Source of the DNA: Firmicutes bacterium ADurb.Bin182
GTDB lineage: Bacteria > Bacillota > Clostridia > Christensenellales > CAG-138
DNA: 64,000 nucleotides
Assembly (NCBI GenBank): GCA_002070205.1
Contig: MWCU01000032.1
Span: forward strand, 15,123 to 79,122
Reading direction: 5' to 3'
In this document: positions 3,819 through 46,482 of the stretch, in pieces
Layout of the letters: every line of letters starts with the position of its first letter
How positions within the stretch are numbered: position 1 is the first letter of the stretch
Notes under the pieces: model-generated
The model's database searches: none
Told to the model about the DNA's origin: nothing
What the model saw: the letters and a program-made list of their open reading frames with translations, nothing else
Translations under genes and position numbers: made by a program

Positions 3819-6800
3819 ATGCTTAAAAATGGACTATATGAATTGGTCATTAGTAAGGCAATTGCGAAAGAACTTGATCGTTACATTGATGGAATCCAAA
3901 AAACTGCTCCTATAGATAGCGCTGAAGCATCCAAGATTTTAACGAAATATATTTCAGAAATAATCGAAAAGAGAATGGATAATGTCAAGGATAATAGTGG
4001 CAATATTCAAGCTCAAATAGATCTTGCTAACAAAATAATCACAACAATTTGGAATGAGACGGACGAAGCTGTCTACAATGCATTAACTGTAGATGAGCGC
4101 GCACAGCAACTCTTAGCTTTATTCGGTCAGAAAAACAATATTTTTGCATTAGATTCAAAGGCACAAATTATACGTCCAGAAACCTCTATTGCGCAAAGTT
4201 CATTGTTCACCGGCTCCATACATGAGCCATGTTTGTATACAGAATTTAAAAAAGAAATTCTATCCTGTGACCGTATCGATATGCTCGTTTCCTTCATTAA
4301 GTGGAGTGGATTAGTGCGTATCATAGATGAACTACGCACCTTTACATTGAATGGTGGGCAATTAAGAGTTATAACCACTTCCTATATGGGCGCAACAGAT
4401 ATGAAAGCAATAGAGGAGCTTCGTGTTCTACCTCATACCGACATTAAAGTTTCATATGATACAAAGCGCACTAGGCTCCATGCAAAAACTTATGTGTTCT
4501 ATCGTAACACGGGATTCACAACAGCTTATGTCGGATCATCTAACCTGTCCAATGCTGCAATTTCAAGTGGCTTAGAATGGAATGTTAAAGTAGCAGCAAA
4601 AGAACTTCCTGATACTATTCAAAAGATCAGTGCTACCTTTGAAAGTTATTGGAATTCTAGCGAGTTCGAAGTATATACGGTTGAACAACAAGAAAAGCTT
4701 AAACATGCACTTCGGGCTGAGAAGTATTTCATTGAGAATATTGATCAATTATATTTATTTGATATATCACCTTATCCATATCAACAGGAAATCTTAGATA
4801 AGCTTGATGCTGAACGTAAGATACGTGGTAAAAATCGAAACTTAGTCGTAGCTGCAACAGGTACTGGTAAAACAGTGATTTCTGCGTTTGACTATAAACG
4901 TTTTTGTAAGGAAAACATAGGTAAACCTTGTCGCTTATTATTCGTTGCTCACAGAGAGGAAATTCTTAAGCAAAGCATAAATTGTTTTAAGGGTGTGTTG
5001 AGAGATAACAATTTCGGTGATTTATTTGTAGGTGGATATAAACCGAATTCTATAGACCATTTATTTATGTCAATACAGACTTTCAATTCTCAACAATGGC
5101 ATAAGAAAACAACACCGGACTTTTATAATTACATTATCATTGACGAGTTTCATCATGCAGCAGCACCTTCTTATCAAGAAATATTAACTTATTATCAACC
5201 TCAAATTTTACTTGGTTTAACAGCAACACCTGAGCGGATGGATGGAAAAAGCATTCTTGAATATTTTGATAACCGAATTGCAGCAGAAATCCGTTTGCCT
5301 GAGGCTATTGATCGAAAACTTTTATGCCCCTTTCAGTATTTCGGTGTAACAGACACAATTGATCTTGACAGTTTAAAATGGACACGTGGTGGCTACGATA
5401 AGGCTGAATTGTCGAAAATTTACACGCTTGATCAAATGGTCGCAGACAAACGATGCAATATGATTATAGCCTCAATCTTGAAGTATGTTACAGATATTAA
5501 CGAAGTTAAAGGGTTAGGTTTCTGCGTATCGCAAGAACATGCAGAATACATGGCAAATTACTTCAATCAACACAACATCCCCTCAATGTATTTAATTGCT
5601 GATTCGCCTGATAGTGAAAGGCACGAAGCAAAAAATAAACTTATCAGCGGTGACGTTCGTTTTATCTTCGTTGTCGATCTTTACAATGAAGGAGTTGATA
5701 TACCCGATGTGAATACAGTTCTGTTTTTACGACCGACAGAAAGTCTAACTATATTTCTACAGCAGCTTGGCCGGGGACTTCGTTTAGCAGATAATAAAGA
5801 ATGTTTGACGGTATTAGATTTTATCGGCCAAGCAAACAAAAAATATAACTTTGAGAATAAGTTCGCTGCTTTGCTTTCAAACACCACACGTGGTGTTCGT
5901 CGCGAAATTGCGGAAGGATTTGTTTCTGTTCCAAAAGGCTGCTTTATCCAGCTTGAACGAAAAGCAAAGGAATACGTTCTTGAAAATATCAGCAATTCTT
6001 TTGATACAAAATTTGGTCTCATCACTCGAATTGCTTCCTTTGAAGAGGATAGCGGACTATCTTTAAGCCTTGAAAACTTTATTGATTATTACCATTTGGA
6101 CACACGCAGTATTTATATTCGTGATAATTTCTCACGATTATGTGTTTTAGCCGGCGTCAGAGATGACTTTTTCGAACCAATAGAGCAGACTATGACAAAG
6201 GCGTTCTCAAGAATATGTGCGATTGATTCTCGAAGATGGATTACCTTTTTACTAAAAGCATTTGATACTCTTGATTCTTGGGAGGTAGGTGCGCTTAGTG
6301 ACGGTGAAAGGCGCATGCTACAAATGTTTCAATTCACCGTTTGGCAAAATTCTGTTGAAGCTTGTGGATTTACTGATATAAAAAACGGGCTGAAAATAAT
6401 AAAGGATTGTCCCGTACTATATAAGGAATTAATTGAATTATTGAAATACAATTATAGCCATATAGACTTTATTGACCAACATGTTGACCTCGGTTTTGAT
6501 TGTCCGCTGGATGTACACTGTCAATATACAAGAGATCAGATATTTGTTGCATTGGATTATTTGACGCCGGGCGCAATACGTCAAGGTGTAAAGTGGTTAC
6601 CAGACAAAAAACTGGATGTATTTATTAACACTCTTAATAAAGCAGAAAAGGACTATTCGCCGACAACGATGTATAACGACTATTCCATAAACGAATGGTT
6701 ATTTCATTGGCAGAGCCAAAGCACAACTTCGGAAAGTTCGCCGACAGGTCAACGTTACATCCATCATGCTACTCGCGGTAGTAAGGTGCTGTTATTTGTA

Positions 6801-6965
6801 CGCGAATATAATGAAGATATTGCTGGAACGGCACCATTTACCTTCCTCGGCATAGCAAATTATGTAAAACATGACGGTTCATGCCCGATGAACATTACAT
6901 GGAAATTGGAAATTCCAATTCCAGCTAAGTTTATTAAGAAAACAAATAAGTTGGTGGTGGGTTAA
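3819..6965 (+). CDS. SauUSI-like Type IV (modification-dependent) restriction endonuclease: N-terminal PLD-family nuclease, SF2/ResIII helicase, C-terminal DUF3427
   Basis: PLD motif RLHAKTYVF...GSSNLSNAA. Helicase motifs are VVAATGTGKT (I), IIDEFHHAA (II), LGLTATPER (III) and LQQLGRGLR (VI). The C-terminus FHWQSQSTTSESSPTGQRY...VLLFVRE...FTFLGIANYVKHDGSCPMNITWKL is typical of DUF3427. The gene is AT-rich relative to its neighbours. Confidence 0.8.
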   Translation: MLKNGLYELVISKAIAKELDRYIDGIQKTAPIDSAEASKILTKYISEIIEKRMDNVKDNSGNIQAQIDLANKIITTIWNETDEAVYNALTVDERAQQLLALFGQKNNIFALDSKAQIIRPETSIAQSSLFTGSIHEPCLYTEFKKEILSCDRIDMLVSFIKWSGLVRIIDELRTFTLNGGQLRVITTSYMGATDMKAIEELRVLPHTDIKVSYDTKRTRLHAKTYVFYRNTGFTTAYVGSSNLSNAAISSGLEWNVKVAAKELPDTIQKISATFESYWNSSEFEVYTVEQQEKLKHALRAEKYFIENIDQLYLFDISPYPYQQEILDKLDAERKIRGKNRNLVVAATGTGKTVISAFDYKRFCKENIGKPCRLLFVAHREEILKQSINCFKGVLRDNNFGDLFVGGYKPNSIDHLFMSIQTFNSQQWHKKTTPDFYNYIIIDEFHHAAAPSYQEILTYYQPQILLGLTATPERMDGKSILEYFDNRIAAEIRLPEAIDRKLLCPFQYFGVTDTIDLDSLKWTRGGYDKAELSKIYTLDQMVADKRCNMIIASILKYVTDINEVKGLGFCVSQEHAEYMANYFNQHNIPSMYLIADSPDSERHEAKNKLISGDVRFIFVVDLYNEGVDIPDVNTVLFLRPTESLTIFLQQLGRGLRLADNKECLTVLDFIGQANKKYNFENKFAALLSNTTRGVRREIAEGFVSVPKGCFIQLERKAKEYVLENISNSFDTKFGLITRIASFEEDSGLSLSLENFIDYYHLDTRSIYIRDNFSRLCVLAGVRDDFFEPIEQTMTKAFSRICAIDSRRWITFLLKAFDTLDSWEVGALSDGERRMLQMFQFTVWQNSVEACGFTDIKNGLKIIKDCPVLYKELIELLKYNYSHIDFIDQHVDLGFDCPLDVHCQYTRDQIFVALDYLTPGAIRQGVKWLPDKKLDVFINTLNKAEKDYSPTTMYNDYSINEWLFHWQSQSTTSESSPTGQRYIHHATRGSKVLLFVREYNEDIAGTAPFTFLGIANYVKHDGSCPMNITWKLEIPIPAKFIKKTNKLVVG

Positions 6966-7009
6966 GTTAGAAATGACTTTTATCATTATATTTTTAGGTG
7001 AGAAGCGCT

Positions 7010-7936
7010 ATGGATTACGGTAAAATCTTAAGCTCAGTTGATTATGGATCAATATTGAAAGCTGTTTGGCCTGTTTTTATTTTAATGATAGCCGGCGTTT
7101 TATTTAAAGTATTTTTCCCTAAAATAAAAGGATCACTTGGCGAAAGATACATTAATTCCGTATTATCTTCTTTACCGAAGGATAAATATTACGTGCTCAA
7201 CAATATCATGCTTAAAACCGATAGAGGTACGTCCCAGGTTGATCATATCATTGTATCTGTTTATGGCATTTTTGTTATAGAAACAAAAACCTATAAGGGG
7301 TGGATTTTCGGCAATGAATATGAACCATATTGGACGCAAAATATTTATGGCAAAAAAAATAGGTTTGATAATCCTATAAGACAGAATTACGGACATGTAA
7401 AGGCTTTGGATAGCTTATTAACGGAATATAAAAACATTCCGATTATCCCCATCGTGGCTTTCTCAGGTGAGTGTGATTTAAAAGTAAAGTTAAAACAAGA
7501 AAATGTTGTATATTTTTCAGGTGTTAAAAAGCTCATTAAACAGTACAAATGTGAGTCCATGGATAGAGAAACTGCGCTTAAAATATATGAACTCATAAAA
7601 CACAACAATATTGACTCAATGGAAACTCGCAAAGAACACGTGGCTTCGATTAGAGCAAAGCTTAAAGGAAATCATGAACAAAGCGAAAATAGTATGGATG
7701 AAATGTCGAAAGGGGACTCCAGGGTACTAAACGAGACACATAGTGAACCTCAGATTATCAATTCTAAACCCACACAAGAAGAAATAGCAGTTGAAATAAC
7801 CGCTTCCGGGAAAATGATTTGCTCAAGATGCGGGGCGGAAATGGTAAAGAGGAAAGCAACGAGGGGTGAAAACACAGGAAAGGAATTCTGGGGCTGCTCC
7901 GCCTTCCCCAAGTGCAGGAATATCATCAATATATAA
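7010..7936 (+). CDS. Membrane-anchored NERD (nuclease-related domain) protein with a C-terminal topoisomerase-type C4 zinc finger
   Basis: N-terminal hydrophobic helix AVWPVFILMIAGVLFKVFF. NERD core DHIIVSVYGIFVIETKTYKGWIFG. C-terminal CSRCGAEMVKRKA...FWGCSAFPKCRN. The ATG at 7010, preceded by AGGTGA, is preferred over the GTG at 6998. Confidence 0.75.
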   Translation: MDYGKILSSVDYGSILKAVWPVFILMIAGVLFKVFFPKIKGSLGERYINSVLSSLPKDKYYVLNNIMLKTDRGTSQVDHIIVSVYGIFVIETKTYKGWIFGNEYEPYWTQNIYGKKNRFDNPIRQNYGHVKALDSLLTEYKNIPIIPIVAFSGECDLKVKLKQENVVYFSGVKKLIKQYKCESMDRETALKIYELIKHNNIDSMETRKEHVASIRAKLKGNHEQSENSMDEMSKGDSRVLNETHSEPQIINSKPTQEEIAVEITASGKMICSRCGAEMVKRKATRGENTGKEFWGCSAFPKCRNIINI

Positions 7937-8141
7937 CGTGCTTTGGTTGGACACAATCGCTTCGTTTCTATTTTTCTTTTTGATTTCTTCATATATAATA
8001 ATCCAATAAAGCCGGCGGCAATGAATAAAAAGCGGGTCGCAGGCAATGCTTCATCTGTCAGCAATCGGCCGCGGTTCTGCGGCTTTGGTCACTAAAACCG
8101 GGTGTTGAAGCGAAATATAAAATCGGAACGGAGGGAACTTA

Positions 8142-9263
8142 TTGGCTGAGAATACTTCATGTTTCCCGTACAAGTTCGCTGTTTTGGGCGCCGGCCACGG
8201 CGGAACGGCTGTGGCGGCGCATTTGTCTTTAATGGGCGCGGACGTCAGTTTGTATAACCGCAGCGCCGAGCGTATCAAAGCAATACAGTTTACGGGAGGA
8301 ATCGAGCTTTTAAGCGATGTGGAAACCATACCTACAGGGTTTGCGAATATCAGCATCGTCACGACCGATATCCGCGAGGCGATAGAGGGCAGAGATATTC
8401 TGATGGTAGTTGTGCCTGCATCGGGACACCGTTTTATCGCCGAGGCATTAGCACCTCATATCGAAGACGGCCAGATCATAGTTTTAAATCCCGGCCGCAC
8501 CGGCGGAGCGCTCGAAGTTCTCAACATTTTACGGAACAAAAACGCAAGCGCGGGCTTCGTCGTTTGCGAGGCGCAAACGCTGATATACGCAAGCCGCGCG
8601 ATAAACCCGGCGCAAACGAGAATATTCCGGATAAAGAACAGCATCCCGGTCGCCGCAATACCGGCGCACCTGACTCCGGAAATAATCAAAAAACTGAGGA
8701 CCGCATACCCGCAGTTTGTACCCGGCGACAACGTCATGAAAACAAGCCTCGACAATATCGGCGCGGTTTTTCATCCGGTAATCACGGTATTAAACGCCGC
8801 AAGGATCGAAAGCACAAACGGTGATTTTGACTTTTATACGGAAGGGATCACGTCGTCTGTAGCCGCAATTCTGGAGTGCATAGACAGGGAGCGCGTTACG
8901 ATAGCCGAATCGCTCGGTTTCAGGGCCATGACTGCCAGAGAATGGCTGTACACGGCTTATGACGCGTCCGGGAGGACGTTGTTTGAGGCCATCAGAAGCA
9001 ACAGAGGCTATGACGATATCAAAGCTCCGAAGACGATTTTTAACCGCTACATTACCGAAGATATCCCGATGAGCCTCGTTCCTCTCGCAGCACTGGGATC
9101 GCTTGGAAATGTTCCCACACCGACGATCGACGCGATAATAATGCTCGGCTCCATTCTGCACAAAGTCGATTATGCCAAAGCAGGGCGGTCGCTCAAAGAC
9201 ATGGGTCTTGAAAACATGAATTTGAAGAATATCAGAAGATACATACTGGAAGGGGAATTATAA
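8142..9263 (+). CDS. NAD/NADP octopine/nopaline (opine) dehydrogenase family protein
   Basis: N-terminal Rossmann loop FAVLGAGHGGTAVAAHL. 373 aa. TTG start with a GGAGGG RBS. Confidence 0.65.
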   Translation: MAENTSCFPYKFAVLGAGHGGTAVAAHLSLMGADVSLYNRSAERIKAIQFTGGIELLSDVETIPTGFANISIVTTDIREAIEGRDILMVVVPASGHRFIAEALAPHIEDGQIIVLNPGRTGGALEVLNILRNKNASAGFVVCEAQTLIYASRAINPAQTRIFRIKNSIPVAAIPAHLTPEIIKKLRTAYPQFVPGDNVMKTSLDNIGAVFHPVITVLNAARIESTNGDFDFYTEGITSSVAAILECIDRERVTIAESLGFRAMTAREWLYTAYDASGRTLFEAIRSNRGYDDIKAPKTIFNRYITEDIPMSLVPLAALGSLGNVPTPTIDAIIMLGSILHKVDYAKAGRSLKDMGLENMNLKNIRRYILEGEL

Positions 9264-41563: not shown

Positions 41564-43387
41564 TCAGCCTTCCGTTCTGGAAGCCTTTTTCAATCTCTGC
41601 TCCTTGGATAAGATCTTTTTTCGCATGCGAATGCTCTTGGGCGTGACCTCGACGAGTTCGTCGTCCGCGATGAACTCTAGGCACTGCTCGAGGCTCAGCT
41701 GCGCCGGCGGCGTCAGCCTCAGCGCTTCGTCGGATCCCGCAGCGCGCATGTTTGTGACATGCTTCTTTTTGCACACGTTGACAGTGATGTCCTCCGCTCT
41801 CGAGCATTCGCCCACGATCTGTCCCTCGTAAACGGGGATGCCGGGACCTACGAACAGCCTGCCGCGTTCCTGCGTGTTGAACAGGCCGTATCCCGTCGTT
41901 TCGCCTGTTTCGTGCGCCACAAGGCTTCCGCGGGTACGCTCGCCGATATCGCCTTTATAAGGCTCATAACCATGAAATACATGGCTCATCACTCCATTGC
42001 CGCGGGTATCCGTCAGAAGCTCGGAACGGTAACCCAAAAGCGAGCGGGCGGGGATGAGGAACCGAAGCCTTACGCCGCCGCTTACGTCGTTGTGCATATC
42101 GATAAGCTCCGCCTTGCGGTTTCCGAGTTTTTCGATTACGGTTCCCACATATTCCTGCGGAACGTCGACGGTAAGCTCCTCGACAGGTTCCAGCAGCTCT
42201 CCGTTTTCGCCGCTTCTCATAATGACCTTCGGTCTTGATACGGCGAATTCATACCCCTGTCTTCTCATGGTTTCAATCAAAATGGACAGGTGGAGCTCTC
42301 CGCGCCCGTTGACCTCAAAGGCGTCCGTTGAATCCGTTTCCTTGACCCGCATGGAGATATTGGTCAACACCTCCCTGAAAAGCCGTACGCGCAAATTGCG
42401 AGAGGTGACATATTTCCCTTCGCGTCCGGCAAAAGGGCTGTCGTTAACGATAAAAAGCATACTGACAGTGGGCTCGTCGATATGAACGAACGGCAGCGGC
42501 TCGATGCAGCAGGTATCGCACGCGGTCTGGCCTACGCTCAGACCTTCCACTCCGGCTACCGCTACGATCTCTCCGGCCGAAGCGGACTCGATCTCAATGC
42601 GCTTAAGCCCTTCGAAGCGGTAAATGCGGGTGAGCTTGACGTCATGCGGCTGTGCTCCTCCTCCGCATAAAGTCACGGCCATGCCGCGCTCAGCCTTTCC
42701 GCGCTCGATCCGTCCGATACCAATCCTGCCCACGTATTCATCATAATCGATTGTTGAAAAAAGAATCTGAAGCGGCGCCGACTCGTCCCCGGCCGGAGCG
42801 GGTATGGCGTTTATTATGGTTTGAAACAGCGGCCGCATGCTGCTTTCCAGCTCATCCGGCTCCATGCCCGCATATCCTTCGCGGCCGGATGCGTAAACGA
42901 CGGGAAAATCAAGCTGGTCCTCTGACGCGCCAAGCTCGATAAAAAGATCCAGCGTTTCGCTGACGACCTCAAAAGGCCTTGCTCCCGGCCTGTCCACCTT
43001 ATTGACCACGACGACAGGGACCTTGCGGAGTTCAAGGGCCTTCCTCAAAACAAAACGCGTCTGGGGCATACAACCCTCAAATGCGTCGACAAGCAAAAGA
43101 ACTCCGTCCACCATTTGAAGTATGCGCTCAACTTCGCCGCCGAAATCAGCGTGACCCGGCGTATCGACGATATTTATACGAACTCCGTTATAGTTTACCG
43201 CTGTATTTTTTGAAAGTATTGTGATTCCGCGCTCGCGTTCCAGCTCGTTTGAATCCATTACCCTTTCAACGACCTGCTCATTGGATCTGAATACGCCGCT
43301 TTGCCGCAGCAGCTGATCCACCAGCGTGGTTTTTCCGTGATCGACATGCGCTATTATTGCTATGTTTCTGATATTCTTATTCTGCAT
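41564..43387 (-). CDS. typA: Translational GTPase TypA/BipA
   Basis: IRNIAIIAHVDHGKTTLVD, DTPGHADF and NKVDR G-motifs. 607 aa. Confidence 0.9.
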   Translation of the reverse strand: MQNKNIRNIAIIAHVDHGKTTLVDQLLRQSGVFRSNEQVVERVMDSNELERERGITILSKNTAVNYNGVRINIVDTPGHADFGGEVERILQMVDGVLLLVDAFEGCMPQTRFVLRKALELRKVPVVVVNKVDRPGARPFEVVSETLDLFIELGASEDQLDFPVVYASGREGYAGMEPDELESSMRPLFQTIINAIPAPAGDESAPLQILFSTIDYDEYVGRIGIGRIERGKAERGMAVTLCGGGAQPHDVKLTRIYRFEGLKRIEIESASAGEIVAVAGVEGLSVGQTACDTCCIEPLPFVHIDEPTVSMLFIVNDSPFAGREGKYVTSRNLRVRLFREVLTNISMRVKETDSTDAFEVNGRGELHLSILIETMRRQGYEFAVSRPKVIMRSGENGELLEPVEELTVDVPQEYVGTVIEKLGNRKAELIDMHNDVSGGVRLRFLIPARSLLGYRSELLTDTRGNGVMSHVFHGYEPYKGDIGERTRGSLVAHETGETTGYGLFNTQERGRLFVGPGIPVYEGQIVGECSRAEDITVNVCKKKHVTNMRAAGSDEALRLTPPAQLSLEQCLEFIADDELVEVTPKSIRMRKKILSKEQRLKKASRTEG

Positions 43388-43501
43388 TCTGACCGTCCTG
43401 AACGTAAAATTTCACAACAAGCTATTATATGCTTATCATCGTCATTGCACAAGTAAAAATTCAAGGAAGCGGGCGACAAGAACGTTCCAGACATTTTGAA
43501 C

Positions 43502-43531
43502 TTGACTCTCCGATTGCAGATGGAGTATAAT
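43502..43531 (+). promoter_or_regulatory. Putative sigma-A promoter for the TPP riboswitch / thiT
   Basis: TTGACT (43502-43507), 18-nt spacer, TATAAT (43526-43531). Confidence 0.5.
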
Positions 43532-43548
43532 TTTCATCGGAAAGACAA

Positions 43549-43695
43549 CCCGCTGGGGGTGCCGAAAGGCTGAGAAATACACCCTTGGAACCTGTGAAGT
43601 TAGTACTTGCGTAGGGAAGCGGAAGCATGAAGGACCAATGTAATCAGCACATGTTTTCGTTTTCCCGTACCCCGAAGGGGTGCGGGTTTTCTTTT
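43549..43695 (+). promoter_or_regulatory. TPP (THI-box) riboswitch with a terminator expression platform
   Basis: CGCTGGGGGTGCC..GGCTGAGA..ACCCTTGGAACCTG..GCGTAGGGAAGCG matches the THI element core. It is followed by CCCGTACCCC-gaag-GGGTGCGGG and TTTTCTTTT (43664-43695). Confidence 0.85.
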
Positions 43696-43861
43696 GCAAA
43701 GGCGCTCTAAAGGTGTAAGCCCGATGACCGGGGTCCTGCGGGAAAACAAAAACCAAAAGCTTAAGAGGGGCCGAAATCGAAGAAACAGCGCTCCGATGCG
43801 GGAATGCCGCGCGAAGCCGGCTTTATCTGAGCTTTTAAATTAAAAATAAAAGGAGAAAAAA

Positions 43862-44515
43862 ATGGAATTTACGCTGATTTCCGAATTTAAAGATCTCGGA
43901 CTCCTTACATGGATCTGCCTCGGTACGGCGCTGATAATGACGGCCGTGCTCATATCCGTGCTCGCCCGGAGCAAGAAGGCGGGGGAGCCGCCCGATGAAA
44001 TCAAAAAAAGCGCGACGCGCGCACTCGTATACGGCGCGTTGTGCGTCGCGCTTTCCTTCCTGTTATCCTATATCAAACTGTTTTCGATGCCTCAGGGCGG
44101 TTCCATTACCCTCGCAAGCGTACTGCCTCTGGCACTTTACGCATACCGGTTCGGGCCGAAATACGGAATAATAGCGGGCATGGCGGCGGGCGTGCTTCAA
44201 TTCATACAGCAGCCCGAAGTGTATCATCCCGTTCAGCCGTTTCTCGATTATGTCCTTGCCTTCGGATGCTTCGGCCTTGCCGGATATTTCAGAAGAAGCC
44301 TGCCTTTGGGGCTTATTGTGGGCGGCATAGGAAGGATCCTTTTTTCAACGCTTTCCGGCGGACTTTTCTTCTATATGTACGCGCCGGAAGGAATGAACCC
44401 GTGGATATATTCGGTGGCATATAATACCGTCGTGCTGGGTCCCGACGTGCTTTTATGCGCGTTCATCGCAGTTCTGCCGCCCGTAAAGAAGCTTATGGAT
44501 AACATAATGAAATAA
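43862..44515 (+). CDS. thiT: ThiT-family thiamine transporter (ECF S-component)
   Basis: Six-TM protein with IKLFSMPQGGSITLASVLPL. It lies downstream of the TPP riboswitch. Confidence 0.7.
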   Translation: MEFTLISEFKDLGLLTWICLGTALIMTAVLISVLARSKKAGEPPDEIKKSATRALVYGALCVALSFLLSYIKLFSMPQGGSITLASVLPLALYAYRFGPKYGIIAGMAAGVLQFIQQPEVYHPVQPFLDYVLAFGCFGLAGYFRRSLPLGLIVGGIGRILFSTLSGGLFFYMYAPEGMNPWIYSVAYNTVVLGPDVLLCAFIAVLPPVKKLMDNIMK

Positions 44516-44531
44516 TAAATCGCGATGGCGA

Positions 44532-44572
44532 AAGGACATTTCGGCAATCAGGAATGTCCTTGATTTTATTTT
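44532..44572 (+). terminator. Intrinsic terminator of thiT
   Basis: AAGGACATT, 12-nt loop, AATGTCCTT, then GATTTTATTTT. Confidence 0.7.
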
Positions 44573-44685
44573 CCGGGAAATTTTCGCTGTCGCAGTAATC
44601 GGCTGCCTGTATCAGCGTGTTTCCGATATGCGTTCAATATCTTCAAAATCAGCAATGAGTAAGCTGTTCTTTGATTGAAACCGAT

Positions 44686-45056
44686 GATTACTGACGACAT
44701 GCGCGTCAGTAATCATACCTTGCGCGGTCACTGCCCGAAAATTACCGCAGTAATTTTAAGTGACCGTGTAACATCCTTTGTTAATAAACGCTTTCAATTA
44801 TTTTTTACGACGTAAACGTCAATTAACTAAACTCGTGAACAATGCCACAGCATTGTTCACAAAAAGCAAAGCCGTTCCCCGCCGAGTTGTCGACGAGGCG
44901 GACGTACCAATAAAATTCAAAAAACGTGGCGACATGCGCGCCGCGTTTTATACCTTGCGCCAACATCTCCCGAAAATCACCGCAGTGATTTTAGATGTTG
45001 GCGTAAAAACTCGTCCAAAATTCGCTTACATGACCGCAGTCATGTGAGCGACAGCG
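44686..45056. repeat. Tandem pair of multi-hairpin units with conserved loops and linkers and covarying stems
   Basis: Unit A starts at about 44686 and unit B at about 44920. Both share loop ACATGCG, linker ATACCTTGCGC, core CCCGAAAATYACCGCAGTRATTTTA, and AAACTCGT followed by a third hairpin. Confidence 0.7.
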
Positions 45057-45062
45057 GAGCGC

Positions 45063-46382
45063 CTATTTGCCGACGCAGAACCTTTCAAATATCCTGTCCA
45101 AAACCTTTTCGTCGACGGTTTTCCCCGTGATCTGCCCTATATGATCAAGCGCAGTCTTGATATCCGTCGCTGCGCAGTCCGGTTCGTTCGTTAAAAGAGC
45201 GCTCTCGAGCGATTCATGAGCGGTCTTAAGTAACGCTATATGCCTTTTGTTCGTTACCAGCGGACTCTCCTCAGAGGGTGCAACCTTTTTCAGGATATTC
45301 CCTTTAAGCTCCTCGATCCCTTCGCCCGTTAACGAACTTACGGTGCAGACTTCTAGCCCCGTTAGAACACGCAATTCATTCTCGCTGATTTTCGGCTCAA
45401 GATCGCTTTTGCACAGCACCGCGATCCTTTCTTTGCCCCTTGTTTCATTCAGGAGCGACTCATCTTCAGTAGACCACTCGCCGGCCGAATCGAACGCGAG
45501 CAGCAGCAGGTCGGCGTTTTCCTTCGCCTCTTTCGCGCGCTGTATGCCGATGTTTTCCACAAGATCATCCGTTTCGCGAAGTCCCGCCGTATCCGCGATC
45601 CGAACTGGAACTCCGTTAAAGCTCGTCTGTTCTTCAATAATATCGCGCGTCGTTCCGGGCACAGGGGTGACAATAGCGCGCGAATGCCCGATGAGCGCGT
45701 TCATAAGGGACGATTTGCCCGTATTGGGACGGCCGAGTATTACAATACTCGCTCCCTCGCGAAGAACCGCCGCGTGCTTTGCGCCTTCGAGCAGCTTTGA
45801 GATTCCGAGGGCGGCTTCGTTTAAAGCTGCGGGCAATCCAGAGAACACATCTTCCTCGAGCTCATCGGGATAGTCTATTGCCGCGTCTATCCCCGACAGC
45901 GCATCTACAAGAATATCCTCAATGCGTGAAAGTTCTCTTGAAAGGGAACCTTCCAGTTGCATAACCGCCGCTTTCGCGCTTCTTTCGGCAGAAGCGCTTA
46001 TGACGTCCATAACGGCTTCCGCCTGCGCAAGGTCCATTTTTCCGTTAATGTATGCTCTGCGGGTGAACTCGCCCGGTTCCGCCGGACGAAGGCCCTTGCT
46101 CTGCAGAAGGTCAAGGGCTCTTGATACCACGGCAGCACCGCCGTGAGTATATAATTCCGCCATGTCTTCGCCGGTATAGGTTTTGGGCGAGGGGATGTAG
46201 ACCGCCATTATATCGTCAACGGTTTCGCCGCCGTCCAGAAGCTTTCCGTGCGATACGGTCCTCGGCTTGACATCGCCCGAAAAAACGCTCGTCAAAGTCT
46301 CAAGAGCTTCGTTTCCGCTTATCCTTATAACGGCAATCGCTCCTCCGGCGGGTGAGGAGAGCGCGAAAATCGTATCGTTCAT
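45063..46382 (-). CDS. mnmE: tRNA modification GTPase MnmE (TrmE)
   Basis: DTIFALSSPAGGAIAVIRISG, GRPNTGKSSL, and the C-terminal FCVGK. The ATG at 46382 was chosen. Confidence 0.9.
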   Translation of the reverse strand: MNDTIFALSSPAGGAIAVIRISGNEALETLTSVFSGDVKPRTVSHGKLLDGGETVDDIMAVYIPSPKTYTGEDMAELYTHGGAAVVSRALDLLQSKGLRPAEPGEFTRRAYINGKMDLAQAEAVMDVISASAERSAKAAVMQLEGSLSRELSRIEDILVDALSGIDAAIDYPDELEEDVFSGLPAALNEAALGISKLLEGAKHAAVLREGASIVILGRPNTGKSSLMNALIGHSRAIVTPVPGTTRDIIEEQTSFNGVPVRIADTAGLRETDDLVENIGIQRAKEAKENADLLLLAFDSAGEWSTEDESLLNETRGKERIAVLCKSDLEPKISENELRVLTGLEVCTVSSLTGEGIEELKGNILKKVAPSEESPLVTNKRHIALLKTAHESLESALLTNEPDCAATDIKTALDHIGQITGKTVDEKVLDRIFERFCVGK

Positions 46383-46482
46383 AATCCGCACCTTTTAGAT
46401 TTTAAAGTTATTATACCACAAAAGAGATCAAATCAGGATTCTCATAAAGCTCCGGAAAACCCGGTGCCGTCATAACTATAAT

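Follow-up and report, generated by a model that had tools for sequence, protein, structure and literature searches.

Bacterial MITEs with a folded interior include Correia/NEMIS in Neisseria, ERIC, RUP and BOX in Streptococcus pneumoniae, and bcr1 in Bacillus cereus. The element described here resembles them in being short, non-coding, multi-copy, intergenic and strongly folded when single-stranded, in lying often at gene ends, and in having terminal inverted repeats and target duplications in its young copies; its modular build and tandem arrangements are also like those of BOX. It differs from them in that it duplicates a whole terminator hairpin (16-44 bp), whereas their duplications measure 2-9 bp, and in that its own hairpin apex and linker are invariant across genera while the stems turn over with compensation. 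REP/BIME repeats and REPINs are likewise hairpin repeats that lie scattered at the 3' ends of genes, in many cases in tandem, and they can act as mRNA stabilisers or terminators. A REP, however, consists of one hairpin of 20-40 nt and depends on RAYT (Y1) transposases; terminal repeats and target duplications are not known from REPs, and the present element, unlike REPs, does not co-occur with Y1 genes.

A third comparison is offered by the IS1182 family, of which IS1272 and TnSha1 insert into terminator hairpins without a sequence consensus, deleting part of the hairpin and making no duplication (Furi et al. 2016, PMC4923244). According to the citation of Siguier et al. 2015 in PMC4923244, palindromes are the targets of some members of the family. 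The element has in common with IS1272/TnSha1 (PMC4923244) the targeting of hairpins or terminators in the absence of a primary-sequence consensus, and its ends match the CAGACTGT... termini of IS1182-family insertion sequences in related Oscillospiraceae genomes. It differs from these insertion sequences in encoding no transposase and in sharing only about 9-12 nt of the terminus with them, and it duplicates its hairpin target, which IS1272/TnSha1 are reported to delete in part (PMC4923244).

The locus lies in a stretch of 64,000 nt of contig MWCU01000032.1 of Firmicutes bacterium ADurb.Bin182, which we refer to as the window. The thiT-mnmE intergenic region (547 nt) contains a block that begins about 10 nt downstream of the thiT terminator, and its right end directly adjoins the TAG stop codon of mnmE (45063-45065). 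We consider it likely that positions 44585-45062 hold two adjacent, old copies (A and B) of a non-coding mobile element of about 160-240 bp, a MITE. What looks like a new RNA gene is probably a hairpin-rich MITE of a known kind, one that occurs dispersed in genomes of uncultured Oscillospiraceae. The features are listed in Table 1. In the surrounding region (41564-46391), mnmE is not followed by mnmG and rsmG, unlike in many Firmicutes; typA, the TPP riboswitch with thiT, and the element block are found there.

Table 1. Features of the thiT-mnmE region, in window coordinates.
Feature	Position	Strand	Remarks
TPP riboswitch	43545-43634	+	RF00059; 58 bits, exceeding the gathering score; precedes the thiT-type transporter gene; the one real Rfam match nearby
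thiT	43862-44515	+	Pfam Thia_YuaJ
thiT intrinsic terminator	44532-44575	+	Hairpin AAGGACATT/AATGTCCTT, then a T-tract
Copy A, apparently old and decayed	44585-44873	+	R1 match 44684-44771, 106.4 bits; order: long 5' region ending in box ATTGAAACC, H1, ACC, H2, 57-nt insert, AAACTCGT, H3, degenerate tail
Probable left terminal inverted repeat, copy A	44585-44593	+	CGCTGTCGC; perfect inverted match to 45048-45056
H1, unit A	44684-44716		Arms 44684-44696/44704-44716
H2 outer stem, unit A	44720-44732/44759-44771		
H2 inner stem, unit A	44738-44745/44750-44757		
57-nt insert, copy A only	44772-44828		Between H2 and H3
89-aa ORF, spurious	44778-45047	+	Without Pfam family; spans repeat copies
H3, unit A	44835-44845/44850-44860		
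Copy B, full length	44874-45062	+	R1 match 44919-45006, 107 bits; order: 5' module, box AATAAAATTC, H1, ACC, H2, AAACTCGT, H3, right terminal repeat, tail GAGCGC
Left terminal repeat in 5' module, copy B	44879-44901		CCGCCGAGTTGTCGACGAGGCGG
H1, unit B	44919-44951		Arms 44921-44931/44939-44949
H2 outer stem, unit B	44955-44968/44993-45006		
H2 inner stem, unit B	44973-44980/44985-44992		
H3, unit B	45022-45034/45039-45051		
Right terminal repeat, copy B	45048-45056		GCGACAGCG
mnmE	45063-46391	-	Pfam TrmE_N / MnmE_helical / MMR_HSR1

A preliminary description of the window had reported two tandem multi-hairpin units, bracketed by a 9-bp inverted repeat, whose stems differ in sequence and remain complementary. 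All of these hairpins, as well as the bracketing repeat (CGCTGTCGC/GCGACAGCG), were recovered at the positions given for them. The two 88-nt cores (44684-44771 and 44919-45006) align without gaps and have their loops and linkers in common, and the conserved 24-mer CCCGAAAATYACCGCAGTRATTTT would be expected to match nowhere in the window by chance. In a two-hairpin structure of 35 pairs, 97% of the cells of the two-core alignment pair. Twelve of the 35 pairs are changed on both sides between units A and B, with full compensation, a number that none of 500 shuffles reached, and pairing falls to 31-47% when the partners are slid by 1-3 columns. The fold of the intergenic region as a whole is much more stable than that of shuffled sequence (+ strand, z = -9.35; - strand, z = -7.42). 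The earlier description needs correction in two details: TTGCGC, taken there for an unpaired linker, is actually the base of the H2 stem and pairs with GYGTAA, partly via G.U pairs that form on the + strand only, and in unit A H2 and H3 are separated by an insert of 57 nt. This insert holds a GCTTTCAAT box similar to the one that precedes H1 in other genera and, after the box, a small hairpin, GACG-TAAA-CGTC; it may be a fragment of a third, nested copy.

Copies of the element recur both within this genome and in other genera. R1, a covariance model for which the pair of window units was the sole input, found nine copies in this genome, seven of them beyond the window pair, at E-values from 6e-16 to 1e-3, so the further copies to which the preliminary description had tied its proposal do exist. 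BLAST, regular-expression and cmsearch searches of this genome gave extra copies at C30/C17, C72 and C64:6258 (a second tandem copy on C64), for a total of about 12. The source genome is the only species of its genus in the genus-level search, which thus yielded no orthologous empty site. Among 41 relatives searched with R1, 18, 8, 7, 2 and 1 copies were found in five other genera of the same family, the first three figures belonging to the genomes G007 (a lower bound), G014 and G020, respectively. An exact-pattern scan of one genome per prokaryotic species yielded 101 stretches, nearly all in MAGs labelled Oscillospiraceae, Ruminococcaceae, Clostridia or Eubacteriales, with a few chance matches such as one in a Mycobacterium record. 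An exact-pattern search of 200 genomes of the family with the window's own motifs gave no match because the pattern was too strict. Two metagenome scans, one with the junction at the mnmE end and one with an insertion sequence end from the MAG G217 (see below), gave no match either. Viral contigs contained one true copy among 19 pattern matches, and none when the strict pattern was used.

The pairing seen in the window holds across the family. In an alignment of 72 distinct copies, obtained by fitting to the model, 94% of the model's pairs are kept, compared to 67% after shuffling; double changes occur in 34 of the 35 pairs, and pairing in H1 reaches 98%. What stays invariant is the H1 apex GACG-ACATGYG-CGTC with the loop GACGACATGYGCGTC, the linker ACACCTTGC between H1 and the composite hairpin H2, and, 5' of H1, a short box of the AATCC type. 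Copies are homologous over a stretch that starts about 45 nt before H1 and runs to about 60 nt past H2, and a full copy is therefore about 200 nt long. Its parts follow in the order 5' module, box, H1, ACC, H2, AAAC.., H3 and tail, with the left terminal repeat inside the small 5' module, one or two A/T-flanked hairpins of the H3 type, and the right terminal repeat last. Tandem arrangements are common, as on C64 (6069/6258) and in G020, where an array at L017:1772-2541 has five units with a period of 354 and 88% matches. Some units of this array are truncated within H1, as if elements insert into, or recombine at, one another's hairpins.

The evidence for transposition comes from recently spread lineages, in which the element has imperfect terminal inverted repeats and is inserted at intrinsic-terminator hairpins, the whole hairpin (16-44 bp) being duplicated. 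In G217, which with dozens of near-identical copies has the most of any genome, 10 of the 11 examined are flanked by a direct duplication of a terminator-like hairpin of 16-35 bp. When copies of all lineages were considered, flanking direct repeats of at least 14 nt were found at 20 of 84, and at none of 84 in a control in which upstream and downstream flanks were paired at random. These 20 copies come from at least four MAGs, and the duplicated repeats are mostly palindromic terminators with A- and T-tracts, for example AAAAAAGAACGCTTCCGAAGAAGCGTTCTTTTTT. The terminal inverted repeats of the young copies are of the types CAGACTGTCAAAAA / CAGGCCGTCGAAAAA, CAGACTGTCAAAAAAGG / CAGGCCGTCGAAAAAC and CAAATTGTCGGCAAAAGCC / AAATCGTCGACAAAGGC, and between target duplications the element measures 149-236 bp. 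The left terminus of the G217 copies has 47 matches in that MAG with up to three mismatches and 31 with up to two, compared to two for the reversed control. Like other MITEs, then, the element is short and non-coding, has terminal inverted repeats and is dispersed in many copies at unrelated loci.

The window copies are linked to these young copies by homology. R1, which was built from the window pair, scores the duplication-bearing copies at E-values of 1e-4 to 1e-7. The 5' module of copy B, CGAGTTGTCGACGAGGC, resembles the termini CAAATCGTCGACAAAGG of duplication-bearing copies of the CAAATTGTCGGCAAAAGCC / AAATCGTCGACAAAGGC type, and the left terminus of copy A resembles the IS1182-type end of its own genome, CAGGCTGTGTAATAAC. 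Since CGCTGTCGC/GCGACAGCG share a CTGTC core with the termini of duplication-bearing copies, we read the bracketing repeat as element termini, most likely the left terminus of copy A and the right terminus of copy B. Neither the window copies nor the other copies in this genome have a target duplication that rises above background, and the terminal repeats in the window consist of the 9-bp pair and the diverged 5' module. The assignment of the window copies to a MITE rests for this reason on their homology to younger copies. We read them as old copies that have probably lost their target duplications.

No protein appears to be encoded in the block. The 89-aa ORF, which had already been suspected of being spurious, must be so regarded, because the copies do not keep one frame through the 5' module and have no large upstream gene in common, and because the ORF has no Pfam match. 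The same differing frames and lack of a shared upstream gene, together with the lack of a match to PF07282, led us to reject a C-terminal coding remnant or a 3' guide RNA of the TnpB type. A small ORF starting from the ATG in the H1 loop on the - strand was also rejected; its frames are not conserved, and the G007 copies lack the module.

The suggestion that the block is either a functional RNA or a DNA site recognised by its structure stood in so far as it may be a structure-rich DNA element; the candidate systems named for it, attC, REP/RAYT and IS200/IS605, did not. The last two would imply a Y1 HUH transposase that recognises the hairpins in single-stranded DNA and mobilises them, perhaps with a guide RNA of the TnpB type. 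The element is indeed rich in hairpins and adjoins terminators, six Y1_Tnp matches occur in this genome, and the CGCA/CGAA-type loops and GCGAAGC-like mini-hairpins may resemble d(GCGAAGC), a stable DNA mini-hairpin. However, Y1_Tnp (PF01797) is absent from G007, G014 and G020, the three relatives with 18, 8 and 7 copies; this genome has no match to the zinc-ribbon domain of Cas12f/TnpB (PF07282), and there is no conserved 5' tetranucleotide of the GTAG type. What is more, IS200/IS605 elements and REPs are not known to make terminal inverted repeats or long target duplications, and copies of the present element have both. We regard movement by a Y1 enzyme as very improbable.

Integron-like attC sites, that is, recombination sites separating gene cassettes, deserve even less credence. 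The elements do follow stop codons, and in G007 successive genes are separated by copies that all point the same way. On the other hand, the best score for an integron integrase (TIGR02249) in six element-carrying genomes was 48 bits, against a cut-off of 265. The neighbours are housekeeping genes, mnmE here and, elsewhere, ORFs that by eye are lysS-, aldolase- and DEAD-box-helicase-like. Each element is a chain of three to four hairpins with terminal repeats, and not the single R''-L''/L'-R' hairpin of an attC site. We find this reading hardly conceivable.

Under the MITE reading a transposase would act in trans, and the termini point to the IS1182 family. In G217, three contigs break about 140 nt inside another repeat, an insertion sequence end (CAGACTGTCAAAGAACC) that shares its first 12 nt with the element terminus, directly follows three different terminator hairpins and encodes the C-terminus ...YTAMNLKKLA.... 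The interior of this insertion sequence is absent from the bin, and its 38-aa C-terminal fragment matched no NCBIfam model on its own. DDE_Tnp_1_6 matches were found in the source genome (G000) and in G003, G020 and G054, and the full-length element in G054 encodes an IS1182-family transposase (NF033551, 336 bits against a cut-off of 270). The IS1182-type ends are CAGACTGTGTGAAAAC in G054, CAGACTGTGTGAAAAA in G003, CAATCTGTGTAAAAC in G020 and CAGGCTGTGTAATAAC in the source genome. No DDE_Tnp_1_6 match was obtained in G007, which has at least 18 element copies. With this gap, and with the G217 insertion sequence unassembled in its interior and its fragment unclassifiable, the assignment is indirect, and we infer with moderate confidence that the element is moved in trans by an IS1182-family transposase. 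At C105:11940-12000 the source genome also has a mini-element in which two IS1182-type ends, CAGGCTGTGTCAAAAC ... ACAGTCTG, make up the entire length of about 60 bp; its flanks, AACCGT/ACGGTT, could pair together.

In the mechanism that we propose, a DDE transposase of the IS1182 family, whose own insertion sequences carry CAGACTGT... termini and land beside terminator hairpins, would mobilise the element by recognising hairpin or cruciform targets and not a sequence. The element's own hairpins are terminator-like, so that fresh insertions would tend to fall in or beside old copies, and this could account for the tandem pair at the present locus and for the arrays elsewhere. The compensated stems would reflect selection on hairpin integrity in lineages that still transpose, together with exchange between copies.

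The covariation can also be read the other way round, with the core (H1, linker, H2 and H3) being primarily a functional structured RNA and its spread secondary. Such an RNA might serve in the 3' UTR as terminator or stabiliser for whichever gene reads into the core, mnmE in this case, or be a small RNA with its own promoter. The strong covariation of the stems and the invariance of loop and linker across genera speak for it, as do several features of strand and position. The H3 side adjoins a stop codon in about 75% of copies; it is turned towards the end of a convergent gene in 24 of 32 cases, and in a larger set in 51 of 67. The H2 base has its G.U pairs on one strand, the +, and U-rich tracts follow H3 and H1 on the -. 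Given these tracts, and with H3 followed by AUUUUGG on the - strand, copy B probably doubles as the mnmE terminator, a role that under the MITE reading its hairpins at the mnmE stop codon would fill incidentally.

A further argument for an RNA comes from two congeneric species, G007 and G054, which carry elements at orthologous sites. There, H1 and the linker are about 97% identical, compared to about 78% for the coding flanks, and H2/H3 are replaced by other paired stems. However, because the same H1 arms recur elsewhere in G054, these differences can be explained by exchange between copies or by re-insertion. We therefore rejected compensatory evolution in situ as an account of G007 versus G054, since it is not separable from copy-to-copy exchange.

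Other observations stand against an RNA function. The element has no Rfam match, all matches within it being at chance level (E of at least 1.6). Its orientation relative to the flanking genes is not fixed, with about 25% of copies reversed and both copies on a prophage-like contig co-directional with their neighbours. Folding energy shows no strand preference (mean difference -2.1 kcal/mol, p = 0.13), and in loop-anchored H1 stems G.U and A.C mismatches are equally frequent, three each. A promoter at the box upstream of H1 was considered and rejected: the box has an AATCC-like consensus in the family, which offers no credible -10, and with only 2 nt between it and H1 it stands too near for the -10 of a transcript that includes the whole of H1. 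Finally, terminal repeats and target duplications show an origin at the DNA level. As the primary nature of the core, the functional RNA of the preliminary description is in our view unlikely.

The MITE reading, for its part, does not cover everything in the interior. A MITE mobilised by a DDE enzyme needs only its ends, and end-recognition by such an enzyme does not account for an H1 apex that never varies, for the linker or for stems that stay paired in the interior. What is unusual about the element is the duplication of the whole hairpin and an interior in which apex and linker stay invariant while the stems change with compensation; simple end-recognition explains neither. One conceivable explanation, to which we assign a low probability, is that the H1 apex, the linker ACACCTTGC and the always-paired H2/H3 form a functional single-stranded nucleic acid. 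It could be a folded DNA or RNA cofactor of the transposase, in which case IS1182-type enzymes would need it to recognise hairpin or cruciform targets, or a passenger, namely a small RNA or terminator cassette retained by the host. If so, the element would be a structure-guided transposition system or a mobile RNA gene, and not an ordinary MITE; a functional interior would mean that a structured nucleic acid hitch-hikes on, or assists, a DDE transposon.

If the MITE reading holds, the signal of covarying, tandem, RNA-like units is the product of transposon biology, and this should stop its annotation as a riboswitch or sRNA both here and in dozens of Oscillospiraceae relatives. The mechanism by which IS1182-type enzymes choose hairpins is poorly understood, and the element provides a natural data set on their choice of terminator hairpins, with many independent insertions that each duplicate a different hairpin. 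The elements also interrupt the assembly of MAGs and occupy the 3' ends of genes, and so have a bearing on binning and on the prediction of terminators in Clostridia of the gut and of digesters.

Several loci with element copies have features of their own. At C64:6069-9300 of the source genome, three copies flank a 703-aa ORF of unknown family (6794-8905, - strand) and an 83%-identical duplication of 281 nt that overlaps the 3' end of a DEAD-box-helicase-like ORF, which suggests a gene-sized insertion at an element. C22 (14.8 kb), the prophage-like contig of the same genome, encodes a major head protein, an endolysin and a holin (PHROGs). Of its two element copies, one lies behind the major head gene and the other in front of the endolysin gene, and both are followed by the same ribosome-binding stretch, CGAAATACCGGAGGTAT. 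In G007, another repeat (L037:8061-8250, about 185 nt) immediately precedes one of the element copies; this other repeat has more than 50 copies in G007 and G054, both of which are rich in small repeats.
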